From assembly GCA_965204755.1 (NCBI GenBank), contig OZ242011.1, forward strand, positions 2,816,001 through 2,880,000: a stretch of DNA of 64,000 nucleotides, written 5' to 3'. The DNA is from Candidatus Marinacidobacterium sp. (GTDB taxonomy: Bacteria; Acidobacteriota; Vicinamibacteria; Marinacidobacterales; Marinacidobacteraceae). Below, one piece after another: positions 2,740-10,124 of this stretch; the stretch's first letter is position 1, and each line of letters starts with the position of its first letter. The translations under genes and the position numbers were made by a program. The notes under the pieces are model-generated. The model made no database searches and was not told the origin of the DNA. It was given only the letters and a program-made list of their open reading frames with translations.

Positions 2740-2771
2740 ACGCTACCCCCCCCCCCCCCCGAAAAAGTCAA
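2740..2771 (-). promoter_or_regulatory. Sigma70-like promoter with poly-G15 spacer (putative phase-variable)
   Basis: Minus strand reads TTGACT-TTTTC-G15-TAGCGT; the C15 tract is at 2746-2760 on the + strand. Confidence 0.6.
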
Positions 2772-2963
2772 TACTTTGGATTAGCCCCTATTAATTCAAC
2801 GAGTTACGGGCCGTCGTCGTCCGGAGTTCTCGAGTCGCCGCCCGCTCACGCCTCCATTTCGGGCCGAACAGTCCGGAATGTCCGCGGAGCGCCTACATCG
2901 CCGTGGCGCGCTCCGACCGGCCGTGGTTCGGCGGCGTTCCGCCACTACAATCCGCGGTGGTTC

Positions 2964-3334
2964 GAGTCGTTCAGACGGTCGCCGGCTCCCTTCGGGGGGC
3001 GGGAGGAAAGTCCGAACTCCGCAAGGCAGTGCGCTGGGTAACGCCCAGTCCGGGCAACTGGAAGGAAAGTGCCACAGAAAACAAACCGCCTCTCCGTTCG
3101 CGGAGCGGTAAGGGTGAAAAGGTGCGGTAAGAGCGCACCGCCCGGGCAGCGATGTCCGGGGCACGGTAAACCCCGCATGGAGCAAGACCAAATAGGGAAG
3201 CGCCCGAGGGCCGCCTGTCCGATGCTTCCGGGTAGGTCGCTCGATCCGGCGGGCAACCGTCGGGCTAGATACATGACCGCCGTCCCGTTCCGGGCGACCG
3301 GTTCGGGGAACAGAATTCGGCTTACGGGCGGCTC
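2964..3334 (+). ncRNA. rnpB: RNase P RNA, bacterial type A
   Basis: Conserved GAGGAAAGTCCGAACTC, GGAAAGTGCCACAGAAA, GGGTGAAAAGGTGCGGTAAGAGCGCACC and AACAGAATTCGGCTTA; P1 pairing GAGTCGTTC/GGGCGGCTC; TACAAT -10 box at 2946-2951. Confidence 0.97.
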
Positions 3335-3392
3335 GGACCCTCGCCGCTCTCCCGACGAGGCGCGCCGCCCGCGGCCGGGGGCCTGAGTCTCG

Positions 3393-6734: not shown

Positions 6735-7472
6735 TTGCGGGCCTTCTCGCGGAAGGCGCCGCTCCCGGCGGAGGGCCGGCGCCGGCGCCCCGGTGAACCG
6801 GAGCGCCGGGGCCGTTCGGCGGCACCGTCGTCCCCCTCGAAGCACCTTCCGACCCGCCGGTCGGCCGCCCTGCGCGGTCGGCGCGGCGCGGCCGGTTTCA
6901 CGCTCACCGAGATGCTGGCCGCCTTCGCCCTGCTCGGCCTGCTGAGCGCGATGGCGGTCCCTCCCATCGTGGACAGTTTCCGGGCGCAGCGCGTCCGCCA
7001 CGCCGCGATGGCGCTGCGCACCCTCCTCCAGCGGACGCGCGCCGAAGCCGCCGCCCGCGCCGCCAATGTGGCGGTCGTTTTCGACCCGCCGGCCTCGGGG
7101 AATGCCCCCGCCGGAGCGGTGGTCCCCGGCGGCCCGCCCACGATCGCGGTGTACCTGGACGAGAACCACAACGGCGTCCGCCGCCGCGAGATCGCCGCCG
7201 GGGAGGAGCGCCTGCTCCGCCCGGCCTGGCGGTTCGACGAGCGGTTCCCCGGCGTGGAGTGGGGCGCCCCCTCCGAAACCGCCGGCGGCGCCCCCATCCC
7301 CGGCCTGGCGGTCGGCGTCGCGCGGATGGTTTCCTTCTCGCCGTTCGGCAGTTCCGGCAACGGCCGGATCACCGTCAGCGGCGCCGGCGTCGCCTATTCC
7401 GTCGTCATCCACGGCGGCAGTTCCCGAATCCGCCTCGAACGCCGCGCCGGAACCGTCTGGGTCCCCGCGTAA
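6735..7472 (+). CDS. GspH/FimT-like prepilin (type IV pilin N-methylation motif)
   Basis: G-FTLTEMLAAFALLGLL prepilin motif and FSPFG-S-G-I C-terminal pattern; start uncertain. Confidence 0.8.
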   Translation: MRAFSRKAPLPAEGRRRRPGEPERRGRSAAPSSPSKHLPTRRSAALRGRRGAAGFTLTEMLAAFALLGLLSAMAVPPIVDSFRAQRVRHAAMALRTLLQRTRAEAAARAANVAVVFDPPASGNAPAGAVVPGGPPTIAVYLDENHNGVRRREIAAGEERLLRPAWRFDERFPGVEWGAPSETAGGAPIPGLAVGVARMVSFSPFGSSGNGRITVSGAGVAYSVVIHGGSSRIRLERRAGTVWVPA

Positions 7473-7520
7473 CCCGACCGCGACCCCTGCGCCGGTCGCG
7501 CTAGCACCCGTTCCCCCCGC

Positions 7521-7697
7521 GTGGGCGCCGCGAACCGCGCCTCCGCGGCGCCGCCTCCCCGGCCGCCGCCCCCGAAGACACCTTCAGCGCCCTGGTTCAC
7601 CGCTCGAGTGCAGAAGGTCCTCCTCGTCGTGGCGCTCCTCAACCTCCTCCTCGGCGCCGCCCGCCTCCTCGTCGGAATCGGAATCCTCCTGAAATGA
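7521..7697 (+). CDS. Small single-TM membrane peptide (58 aa; or 29 aa from GTG 7608), absent from the ORF track
   Basis: Open frame ending ...VQKVLLVVALLNLLLGAARLLVGIGILLK*; its TGA overlaps the ATG of 7694 (ATGA). Confidence 0.5.
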   Translation: MGAANRASAAPPPRPPPPKTPSAPWFTARVQKVLLVVALLNLLLGAARLLVGIGILLK

Positions 7698-8377
7698 CCA
7701 CCCCGCCGAGGCGGAAGCCTCGAACGGGAGAGAACCGACTCGACCCGGACGACCCCCGCTCGCGACCTTCGAGCCCGGAACGGGGCGCCGGGCAATCCCT
7801 CATCGAGCACCTCGAAGAGAGACTCCGCTGCGCCGACGACGCCCGCGTACGCGCCGCCGTCCGCTCCATCGTCGAGAGCCCGATCCTCGAGGAATTCCGC
7901 GCCCGGGTCGCCGCCTACGACCGCGACCACCCGGAAGCGAGGAAGGGCGAAGGCCCGGTCGCCATCCCGCAACGAGAAATCCGCGCCCGCATCGGAGAAA
8001 TCCCCGTCGGCGTACTGACGCGCCGGGCGCGGACCGCGCTGAAATGTCCAACCGACGCGGAGTCCACTCTTTCGCCGATCGTCCGCCTCTCGGCGGAAAC
8101 CGCCCTCAAACAACTGAAGCACAGCGACCCCGGCCTCAAGAGACCGCTGACCAACGACGACTACCGCCTCCTTCCTGGGGTCATCGAGCACGGCGAGATG
8201 CTTTCCATTACCGACCACGAGTTGGCGTTCTTCCTCGAGGTGAAGGGAGAGTGGTATGCGGCTGTCGTCAAACGGACGGAAGACCACCGCGTCTATCTCA
8301 AGACCTTCCATCGCACGAAGGATCGAGACCGGCATGCGGCTCGGAGGCGCGCGGGCGAACGCAAGAGCCCGAAGTAG
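7694..8377 (+). CDS. Stand-alone putative BECR-fold RNase, resembling PBECR2 / phage MuF C-terminal toxin domain
   Basis: VRLSAETALKQLKH...LTNDDYRLLPGVIEHG...GEWYAAVVKRT...VYLKTFHR pattern, recalled from MuF C-terminal nuclease domains; no MuF head domain present. Confidence 0.55.
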   Translation: MTTPPRRKPRTGENRLDPDDPRSRPSSPERGAGQSLIEHLEERLRCADDARVRAAVRSIVESPILEEFRARVAAYDRDHPEARKGEGPVAIPQREIRARIGEIPVGVLTRRARTALKCPTDAESTLSPIVRLSAETALKQLKHSDPGLKRPLTNDDYRLLPGVIEHGEMLSITDHELAFFLEVKGEWYAAVVKRTEDHRVYLKTFHRTKDRDRHAARRRAGERKSPK

Positions 8378-8380
8378 GGC

Positions 8381-8488
8381 GGCGCACGGTGGGGCCCGCC
8401 GTCCGGCCGAAGCCGGCATCCCCACATGGCACTCCGCTTCCGAAGAAGCGTGCTACGGCTGGCGGAAAATTACCGTGTCACGTGCGCC
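8381..8488 (-). ncRNA. Structured pseudoknotted RNA, copy 1
   Basis: Closing stem GGCGCACG/CGTGCGCC, GTGGGG/CCCCAC, two cUUCGg hairpins on the minus strand, pseudoknot CCGCC (8396-8400)/GGCGG (8461-8465); -10 TATGCT at 8495-8500 (-). Confidence 0.75.
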
Positions 8489-8773
8489 GGAGGAAGCATA
8501 GCACGCGGCGCGACTTGCACCGGCGAGCGCTGCGTCCGTCCGTCCCGATCCATCGAGACAGCAAAACGCGTGGAGACCGGACTCCGGCCCTCCAGCGCCA
8601 AGCGCCGTGGACCGCCGGCCCGACCGGACGGCCCCCATCCGAGCAGCAGACGGAGCCGTCATCGAACGGCGAATCTCCGGCATGACCCTCTACCCGAACC
8701 ACAAGGGAGACTCCCGGCGCAAGAAGCGACCAGTGGCGGCGGTAGGCCATTCGTGAACTGCTGCCGACAATGT

Positions 8774-8881
8774 GGCGCATGGTGGGGCCCGTACCCCGGC
8801 CGAAGCCGGCATCCCCACATAGCGCTCCGCTCCCGAAGAAGCGTGCTACGGCCTACGGAAAATCACCGTGTCACATGCGCC
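8774..8881 (-). ncRNA. Structured pseudoknotted RNA, copy 2
   Basis: Same architecture; closing stem GGCGCATG/CATGCGCC; pseudoknot CCGTA/TACGG; TCGACA-N17-TACCGT promoter on the minus strand. Confidence 0.75.
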
Positions 8882-8969
8882 GGGAGAACGGTAGCGCTCT
8901 CGGCGATGTCTGTCGAGCGCGGCCCGGCGGCCGAGAGGGCGAATCGGGGTTCCGCCCTCCGCAGCCGGT

Positions 8970-9077
8970 GGCGCATGGTGGGGCCCGTCGTCCGGCCGAA
9001 GCCGGCATCCCCACATGGCACTCCGCTCCCGCGGAAGCGTGCTACGGCTGACGGAGAATCACCGTGTCACATGCGCC
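8970..9077 (-). ncRNA. Structured pseudoknotted RNA, copy 3
   Basis: Same architecture; pseudoknot CCGTC/GACGG; -10 TATGGT at 9084-9089 (-). Confidence 0.75.
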
Positions 9078-9169
9078 GGGAGAACCATAACGCGCTCGGC
9101 GACGCTTGTTGTCGAGTGTGGCCCGGCGGCCGAATCGGGCGGAACGGGGTTTCGCCCTCCGCAGGCGGT

Positions 9170-9276
9170 GGCGCATGGTGGGGCCCGCCCCCCGGCCGAA
9201 GCCGGCATCCCCACATGTCGCTCCGCTTCCGGGGAAGCGTGCTACGGCCGGCGGAAAATTACCGTGTCCATGCGCC
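9170..9276 (-). ncRNA. Structured pseudoknotted RNA, copy 4
   Basis: Same architecture; pseudoknot CCGCC/GGCGG; -10 TACGCT at 9283-9288 (-). Confidence 0.72.
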
Positions 9277-9375
9277 GGTGGAAGCGTAGCGCGCTCAGCG
9301 ACGCAAACCGCCGGGCGAGGCGCGGGGTTGCCGGATTTCGCAGTCGACCCTTCGCTGATCGGGGTCAAGCGAGGT

Positions 9376-9484
9376 GGCGCACGGTGGGGCCCCCAATCCA
9401 AGCAGCGCTTGGCAACCCCACATAGCGCTCAGTCCCATCGGGATCCGGCTACGGCATGGGGAATAACACCGTGTCGCGTACGCC
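9376..9484 (-). ncRNA. Structured pseudoknotted RNA, copy 5 (most diverged)
   Basis: Hairpin replaced by CCAAGC-AGC-GCTTGG; pseudoknot CCCCA/TGGGG; conserved GTGGGG/CCCCAC, GCTACGG and ACCGTGTC; -10 TACGAT at 9492-9497 (-). Confidence 0.72.
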
Positions 9485-9665
9485 GCCCGGAATCGTAGCC
9501 GCCCTTCGAGGACGGCGCGTCGCATCGGAACCGTGGCTCTCGCCGAAGACTTGGGGAGGGGCGTAGCGGGCAGGCCGGTCCCGACCTGCCGGTACTGAGC
9601 CCGGGTGAGAACTAGGCTGCCATCGGCGTGGCGCTCGACCGCCGCCCCGCGGGCTGGCCGGCCGC

Positions 9666-10124
9666 CTACTCGTCGCTGCCGCGGGTCAACTCGGCGTCGC
9701 GCACCGACAGACGCGGCCACGCCCGAATCTCCCGGAACGCGTCGCCGTCCACGGCGACGATCGGCGGGACCGCCGGGTACATCTCCTCCCCTACGAAGGC
9801 GGCCAGGGCGACGAAGGCGTCCACGCCGCGGGTGATGAGGGCGGCGGGGGCGGTGCCGCGGCGGATCGCTTCGAGCAGCACCGCCGCCGTCGTCGAAGAT
9901 CCGCGGGTGGCGGGCAGCGCCAGGACCCGGCCGGCGCCGTTCTTCCCGGCGAGCGGGTGGTGGGGGTCGGTGATGCGGCCGTTCGCCGCGTCGTAACCGC
10001 CCCAGAAACTGAGCGGTTCGTCCGAATGGAGGACCGGCCCCTCCGCTTCCCCGGCGATCACGACCCGTCCGACCAGCCGCGAAGCGGGCGGCGATTCGCC
10101 GGTCGCCCCCGTCTTCAGTCCCAC
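9666..10124 (-). CDS. Aconitase X swiveling (small) subunit, DUF126
   Basis: GEAEGPVLHSDEPLSFWGGYD...G.I.D.HHPL.G...GRVL..P..RGSST; GTG start overlaps the upstream gene end. Confidence 0.88.
   Translation of the reverse strand: MGLKTGATGESPPASRLVGRVVIAGEAEGPVLHSDEPLSFWGGYDAANGRITDPHHPLAGKNGAGRVLALPATRGSSTTAAVLLEAIRRGTAPAALITRGVDAFVALAAFVGEEMYPAVPPIVAVDGDAFREIRAWPRLSVRDAELTRGSDE

Follow-up and report, generated by a model that had tools for sequence, protein, structure and literature searches.

The window analysed here, by which we mean the whole stretch of 64,000 nucleotides, carries on its plus strand a gene for a PBECR-type nuclease (7694..8377), encoding a 227-aa predicted RNase of the BECR fold, and, downstream of it, five units that are predicted to be RNA genes on the minus strand. 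Copy 1 (8381..8488, 108 nt), which ends 3 nt from the nuclease stop codon, is followed by copy 2 (8774..8881, 108 nt), copy 3 (8970..9077, 108 nt), copy 4 (9170..9276, 107 nt, with a one-base deletion beside the terminal stem P1), and copy 5 (9376..9484, 109 nt); the original prediction, which had been made from the letters of this stretch, gave ~108 nt. Copies 2 to 4 are 88-92% identical to copy 1, and copy 5 is divergent, with 66-70% identity to the other units; between copies, identity amounts to 66-92% for the units versus 51-71% for the 45 nt beyond them. The units are spaced at 196-393 nt, with the interval between copies 1 and 2 (8501-8773, ~270 nt) being three times as long as the others. 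A profile search revealed no toxin remnants between the copies of the window, and the copy 1-copy 2 interval also matches no fetched locus. The ORFs across the array are translated repeats, and no ORF for a protein immunity factor was found 3' of the nuclease gene. A CRISPR array was rejected on account of the ~108-nt repeats and of intervals of 83-282 nt that hold promoters and are partly homologous to each other; the earlier view that the array is not a processed CRISPR-like precursor agrees with the lack of repeat-spacer alternation and with the single unit seen at most of the family loci listed. Elsewhere in the window, positions 2963-3339 (plus strand) encode a bacterial RNase P class A RNA (E=1e-97).

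Judged by sequence comparison, the product of 7694-8377 corresponds to the C-terminal portion of a phage head toxin of the MuF-PBECR type whose MuF domain has been lost. Pfam, including PBECR1-5, MuF_C, and MuF, gave no match to the protein itself. On the other hand, a profile built from its 27 close homologues found 505 representatives, 53 of which were domain scanned; many of these are Phage_Mu_F fusions, and 7 of the 53 match PBECR3, all below the curated cut-off. The ESM Atlas neighbours of the protein are MuF_C, PBECR3, and PBECR2, at 0.91-0.94. The predicted structural model (pLDDT 81.7) places a helix (134-143) before a set of strands (168-208), in keeping with the BECR fold, in which a sheet of four or five strands comes after a helix, and its weak fold matches are BrnT, CdiA-CT, colicin D, and RelE (Z of 3-4.8, the top ones 3.8-4.8), with nothing returned by Foldseek at E<=0.001. 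His143 is invariant in all 27 close homologues, and Thr204 and a KTFHR motif are also present; His143 and Thr204 fit the PBECR active site as given in PMC5512222. His143 lies one residue nearer to the conserved Lys than in most relatives. The gene is flanked by a GspH/N_methyl pilin-like gene and AcnX, with no phage head module. Immediately upstream, a very hydrophobic 29-codon ORF with a GTG start (7608-7697, plus strand) ends in a stop codon that overlaps the nuclease ATG; it looks like a single membrane helix or a peptide of the type I toxin kind, and its translation may be coupled to that of the nuclease. Among the homologues, the C-termini of P0015, P0016, P0020-P0025, and P0028 translate through the RNA unit, and the N-terminus of P0017 is a translated unit, which implies that a unit precedes the P0017 gene, as happens in tandem cassettes.

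The original prediction had given each unit its own minus-strand promoter, on the basis of TAnnnT hexamers lying 6-7 nt beyond the unit. All five hexamers were found where they had been placed (8495-8500, 8888-8893, 9084-9089, 9283-9288, and 9492-9497), at 6, 6, 6, 6, and 7 nt past the terminal stem, so that a start placed 7 nt downstream of the final T would coincide with the opening base of P1. The putative promoter of copy 1 (8495..8503, minus strand) is of the extended -10 type, TG-c-TATGCT, with the TG one base upstream of the hexamer and a predicted start at G8488, while that of copy 2 (8888..8916, minus strand) consists of TCGACA, which matches TTGACA at five of six positions, a 17-nt spacer, and TACCGT (predicted start G8881); both the extended TG and the TCGACA had been named beforehand. 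The minus-strand boxes of the remaining copies are TATGGT in copy 3 (9084..9089; predicted start G9077), which has TCGACA at a 20-nt spacer, TACGCT in copy 4 (9283..9288; predicted start G9276), and TACGAT in copy 5 (9492..9497; predicted start 9484-9485); copies 4 and 5 have no recognisable -35, and copies 3 to 5 have neither a -35 at a 16-18 nt spacer nor an extended TG. The minus strand of the 64-kb window contains just 35 occurrences of TAnnnT. A strict consensus promoter scanner reported 0 promoters in 7400-9700, which we ascribe to its being too strict for these GC-rich promoters. Taken from the window by itself, the promoter evidence is suggestive; since the five copies are duplicates and not independent, its weight has to come from the family.

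A GTDB pattern scan with the unit core yielded at least 121 stretches, 80 with 3-kb flanks and 41 with 300 nt. The 122 distinct matches listed for a core profile that left out the promoter region comprise 95 units and 27 chance matches. A minus-strand TAnnnT occurs 12-22 nt past the ACCGTGT anchor in 54 of the 95 units listed versus 1 of the 27 chance matches; for the same 95 units, shuffling gave a mean of 13.5 and a maximum of 25, more distal windows gave 7-12, and the opposite flank of the unit showed no TAnnnT peak on the plus or the minus strand. The plus strand of the 12-22 nt window holds TAnnnT in 25 of the 95 units listed, which is attributed to the near-palindromic nature of the AT-rich box. 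When similar promoter regions among the matches listed were clustered, the box was found in 45 of 82. Of the 54 box-bearing units listed, 16 have TTG at a 16-18 nt spacer, with a peak at 17 (shuffle 2.2, maximum 8), and 19 have an extended -10 TG (shuffle 3.2, maximum 10). The frequency of the strict box differs between hosts, whose taxa were assigned by hand according to the titles of their records: it is present in 28 of 35 non-alphaproteobacterial versus 18 of 47 alphaproteobacterial units listed (Fisher p=0.0003; unassigned, 8 of 13). The TA is nonetheless retained in 35 of the 47 alphaproteobacterial units listed (control, 9). Alphaproteobacterial promoters often lack the last T of the -10, and the loss of this base in the units thus fits the promoter grammar of the host. 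In loci with several units, the strict box is found on 2/2 copies in L031, L040, and L026, 1/2 in L008, 0/2 in L037, and 0/4 in L069, the last three loci being from Alphaproteobacteria. In L069 (Novosphingobium), four divergent units with no nuclease nearby occupy 2752-3381, and three of them show TA boxes without the last T.

The matches listed come from Alpha-, Beta-, and Gammaproteobacteria, Desulfovibrio and other former deltaproteobacterial groups, Acidobacteriota, Nitrospinota, and others. On the units, no Rfam 15 family reaches its gathering threshold, with partial matches at chance level only; PADLOC gave no meaningful match, and blastn of the unit against phages and plasmids gave chance matches or none. 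We found no description of the RNA in the literature, where supplementary motif catalogues (e.g., PMC8040213) could hold one. The RNA family is widespread, seemingly undescribed, and absent from Rfam.

The strand from which such an RNA would be read can be judged from features that distinguish RNA from its complement. In 76 tetraloop hairpins chosen strand neutrally among the matches listed, GNRA or UUCG loops appear on the minus strand in 38 cases versus 1 on the plus strand. Among 100 units listed, G-U wobbles favor the minus over the plus strand in both P1 (41 versus 16) and P3 (9 versus 0), combining to 50 versus 16 (p=3e-5); P2 and P5 were left out of this count, as the search pattern fixes one or both of their strands. 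The pair closing P2 on the minus strand is U-G in 49 and G-U in 8 of the units listed. In the window, the C-A pairs of copies 2, 3, and 5, which had been put forward as minus-strand wobbles, are present in the sequences, and the proposal that the CGAA loops read as cUUCGg on the minus strand holds for 6 of the 10 variable loops and fails for copy 5, which has none. A caveat raised at the outset was that the base of one stem (TGGCGC/GTGCTA) has wobbles favoring the plus strand; helical pairing is not conserved in this stretch, whose 5' strand is free to vary (ATGG/ATAG/AATG/AAAG), and only 2 of its pairs are supported on the minus strand. Folding of single sequences (z of -0.95 to -2.66 for minus and -1.2 to -1.8 for plus) is uninformative as to the strand, since it cannot model P3. 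As the -35 TTG, the extended TG, the strand bias of tetraloops and wobbles, and the host-specific box, none of which entered into the choice of the hexamers, all agree, the comparative evidence settles on the minus strand and on the promoter signature, and we consider it very probable that the window holds five separate small-RNA genes that are read from the minus strand toward the nuclease gene, each under a sigma70-type promoter of its own.

Comparative support extends to the fold. An alignment of the five window copies and 58 of the 95 units listed gave an RNAalifold consensus consisting of a four-way junction of P1, P5, a variable arm P4, and P2. The loops of P5 and P2 pair with each other through a 5-bp helix, P3, which was not part of the original prediction. 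In plus-strand coordinates, the helices of copy 1 are P1 (8381-8388/8481-8488), P2 (8389-8394/8420-8425), the loop-loop helix P3 (8396-8400/8461-8465), and P5 (8455-8459/8472-8476). On the same strand, P3 reads CCGTA/TACGG in copy 2, CCGTC/GACGG in copy 3, CCGCC/GGCGG in copy 4, and CCCCA/TGGGG in copy 5; the five copies thus contain four different P3 sequences, each of them complementary, which indicates that all copies are under structural selection. With P3 included, 96.9% of 2013 cells in the alignment are paired, with 316 both-side changes, and the covariation score is 0.465 versus 0.133 for shuffled and at most 0.092 for slid alignments. P3 itself is 98.1% paired, with compensatory changes in four of its five pairs, and a blind mutual-information scan ranked P1, P4, and P3 as the top pairs. 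Since the search pattern dictates both P5 and one of the two P2 strands, their invariance carries no evidential value, and support for these two helices comes from divergent versions that were found by protein search. Downstream of three MuF genes, those of Dulem virus 31, Azospirillum plasmid p3, and Haemophilus phage SuMu, a sequence-free descriptor recovered the full architecture and did so exclusively on the minus strand (0, 1, and 0 hits, respectively, in 30 shuffles). The RNA model scores the SuMu locus at E=0.0002, and boxes are present at all three loci (TG-t-TATAAT in Dulem virus 31, TACATT in Azospirillum p3, and TTGATT-17-TATATT in SuMu). A terminator-like U tract after P1 is unsupported (33 of the 95 units listed versus 25 of 95 in the control, a mild bias).

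In its topology the unit resembles tRNA, with a four-arm cloverleaf, a similar order of arms, and a first and a last arm whose loops pair with each other. It differs from tRNA in that ARAGORN, which found 0 tRNA genes in the window, and Rfam make no tRNA call, P1 is not followed by CCA, and the two loops meet in a Watson-Crick helix of 5 bp; in the absence of a CCA end and of a tRNA call, "tRNA-like" describes the topology only. A self-cleaving ribozyme of the HDV-like, twister, pistol, or hammerhead type was rejected because the strand order of these ribozymes differs from that of the unit and because Rfam gave no match.

The comparative data also tie the units to one family of nucleases. Of the 60 long-flank units listed, 25 come straight after a PBECR gene, 2 lie slightly further from one, and 33 have none in the flank (~3 kb), while 13 of the 35 short-flank units listed follow a PBECR gene; both MuF-fused and solo forms of the gene are found next to units. 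Among the matches listed, the distance between P1 and the nuclease stop codon falls between -9 and +45 nt in 37 cases, and 26 of 27 RNA-linked nucleases have the catalytic His, the exception being L016, which has the RNA without the His. Seven MuF loci picked by protein similarity or accession divide into three with RNA, two with neither RNA nor His, and two with His but without the RNA fold. The RNA architecture is absent behind the B23 F protein, which has no KQ..H motif, and behind Mu gp30, both without the catalytic His; the Mu gp30 gene overlaps the next gene, and its product is called inactive in PMC5512222. In SuMu the RNA is present though Arg replaces the His. In the Helicobacter MuF-PBECR loci L002 and L127, the His is present and the RNA architecture was not found.

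The 33 units without a PBECR gene, hereafter orphans, include 17 that carry the strict -10. The neighbors at 28 scanned loci (27 with orphans, and L024) are prophage remnants, restriction and toxin-antitoxin (TA) islands, and housekeeping genes. In L033, L055, L076, and L079 (Allosphingosinicella/Sphingosinicella), orphan RNA genes lie behind the same chromosomal gene in several species, a gene that we take to resemble exodeoxyribonuclease III; this shared position suggests vertical retention by the host. The many orphans in unrelated contexts, the occurrence of several copies per genome (L019, L026, and L029 on one chromosome), and the absence of the strict box from 41 of the 95 units listed would all be accommodated by a mobile or selfish structured repeat that acts at the DNA level or within read-through mRNA and inserts after genes, the -10-like box being incidental. 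We regard this as highly improbable, because the -35 and extended -10 signals are correctly spaced, the bias in tetraloops and wobbles is specific to RNA, the loss of the last T tracks Alphaproteobacteria, and linkage is specific to one nuclease family, with no common transposase among the neighbors at the 28 loci.

The reading that we favor as the simplest, with somewhat more confidence than an even chance would warrant, is that the RNA serves as the antitoxin of the PBECR RNase, binding and blocking the nuclease, plausibly as a decoy shaped like its substrate. We infer transcription of the units, toxicity of the protein, direct binding of the two, a decoy mechanism, and a role for the extra copies, which could be connected as follows: (i) each unit would be a stand-alone gene, transcribed from the minus strand by the housekeeping sigma factor into an RNA of 90-120 nt that starts at the first base of P1; (ii) the RNA would fold into a compact tRNA-like topology, with the P5 and P2 loops joined by P3, and with its four arms and paired loops it would be well suited as a decoy for a tRNase of the colicin D/CdiA type; (iii) the RNA would bind the neighboring PBECR RNase and block its action; (iv) the RNA would be expressed constitutively under its own promoter, in opposition to the phage late operon, and hence be present in the lysogen, which a prophage copy could thereby protect against the MuF-PBECR toxin that its own or related virions carry; and (v) on the chromosome studied here, the module may have been kept without MuF as a nuclease with its cognate RNA (copy 1), with the four further RNA genes adding dose or covering related toxins. 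The 33 orphans among the 60 units listed have no target in cis and favor action in trans, and the conserved tertiary fold, the invariant junction bases, and the orphans together favor binding to a protein over antisense pairing. The high fraction of orphans may just as well point to a role that has nothing to do with the nuclease. Also to be set against the favored reading are the loci in which His and RNA do not go together (L002, L127, L016, and SuMu), the presence/absence comparison being limited to seven loci, as well as the lack of a terminator-like U tract and the weakness of the fold matches to BECR toxins.

The same layout can be explained along the lines of type I TA systems, in which convergent, 3'-overlapping antitoxins are typical: the convergent RNA would pair with an untranslated 3' extension of the nuclease mRNA, causing its decay or blocking read-through, with copies 2-4 acting in trans on that mRNA. 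The position of the RNA end at the nuclease stop codon, the lack of a terminator between the nuclease gene and the units, so that the mRNA probably runs through them, and the extension of the reading frame into the unit in several homologues are in keeping with this explanation. Complementarity of the unit RNA to the nuclease transcript would require that the mRNA read through the unit. Antisense control, however, needs complementarity and not a tertiary fold, yet P3 and the junction are kept across phyla and in divergent versions; moreover, 33 of 60 units listed have no nuclease gene within ~3 kb, and in the 37 cases listed the unit overlaps the coding sequence by no more than 9 nt. We consider this explanation unlikely. 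Type I systems share the convergent promoter and the placement of the RNA end at the 3' end of the toxin gene, and differ from the locus in that their toxins, according to PMC12737573, are typically short hydrophobic peptides; here the putative toxin is a 227-aa RNase and the RNA has a conserved tertiary structure and many orphan copies.

In prophages, the RNA sits in the portal-MuF-protease head module, a location that could also suit a structural or regulatory phage RNA, either one that takes part in head assembly (cf. the intermolecular loops of phi29 pRNA) or a cofactor or cargo copackaged with MuF that activates or aims the nuclease. Covariation is blind to whether P3 pairs within or between molecules, and PMC5512222 suggests that MuF-C domains may bind RNA. 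Such a role appears quite unlikely, given that Mu and B23 possess the head module without the RNA, that units follow solo PBECR genes and orphans lie among housekeeping genes, and that the promoter opposes late-operon transcription and has housekeeping features.

If the antitoxin reading holds, close parallels are found among known systems. Type III TA systems (ToxIN/AbiQ, CptIN, and TenpIN) likewise combine an RNase toxin with a neighboring pseudoknotted noncoding RNA, here proposed to bind and inhibit it, and with several RNA copies per toxin gene. Their repeats, according to 10.1101/2025.04.15.648962, measure 34-50 nt, precede the toxin gene, and are cut into units by the toxin in ToxIN; such repeats run head to tail within a single transcript, in the orientation of the toxin gene. 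In contrast, the units of the window are ~108 nt long, lie downstream on the opposite strand, have a -10 each, and accompany a BECR-fold toxin, and their pseudoknot, the loop-loop helix P3, is of a different class. By analogy, we propose that the RNA works like a type III antitoxin yet fails the type III layout. In AbiF/AbiFr (RCd22), 10.1101/2025.04.15.648962 and PMC12737573 describe a prophage-borne HEPN RNase that is neutralised by a structured RNA of ~100-130 nt with a sigma-A promoter, located upstream of the gene with its start 168 nt before the ATG. The locus shares with this system a nuclease beside a structured RNA on the 100-nt scale with its own promoter, and differs from it in that the relatives of the nuclease are PBECR/MuF-C and not HEPN, and in the fold of the RNA.

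Like known MuF toxins, the relatives of the nuclease fuse MuF to a PBECR-like domain at the C-terminus, are encoded in portal-MuF-protease modules, and have an active site of His plus Thr/Ser; unlike these, the gene of the window lacks MuF, lies between chromosomal genes, and is followed by an RNA 3 nt after its stop codon. PMC5576092 reports small ORFs downstream of 89.4% of MuF toxin genes with known domains, and there and in PMC5512222 the immunity factor is proposed to be a small downstream protein, with no mention of RNA in the passages concerned. The two papers leave the function and the immunity partner of the C-terminal MuF extensions of Proteobacterial phages unnamed, and for these the RNA family provides a concrete candidate partner, such that an antidote job normally done by a protein would here most likely fall to an RNA. 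The family adds a well-supported structured RNA to those known and, should the proposed function prove true, would bring a new nuclease fold (BECR) and a new gene layout into the range of RNA antitoxins. The orphan copies suggest that hosts keep them as protection against phage-delivered RNases. A broader and more tentative possibility is that virion-delivered MuF-PBECR toxins have a tRNA-shaped decoy RNA as their immunity factor and that bacteria capture orphans and stack them into arrays covering toxin variants; if true, arrays of captured RNA genes would be the RNA counterpart of acquired interbacterial immunity arrays.

Several of the loci contain further stretches of interest. One Ca. Marinacidobacterium chromosome contains tandem cassettes of MuF toxin and RNA as well as two orphans. 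In L026 (OZ251549.1, 1441-6060), three tandem MuF genes with differing C-terminal domains are separated by RNA units; behind the first of these genes lies a structured stretch of another kind (~2716-2872), which bears a TATCCT box of its own on the minus strand and is possibly a second RNA type. The Helicobacter prophage loci L002 (2300-2750) and L127 (1850-1990) contain, behind their His-bearing MuF-PBECR genes, structured intergenic DNA with convergent TATAAT/TAGAAT boxes, two of them in L002; these stretches do not match the fold of the RNA described here and are candidates for further RNA families. Finally, the record of Dulem virus 31 (PP511318.1; L003), which is classed under Microviridae, comprises 35.8 kb with tailed-phage portal and minor and major capsid genes and is probably misclassified.
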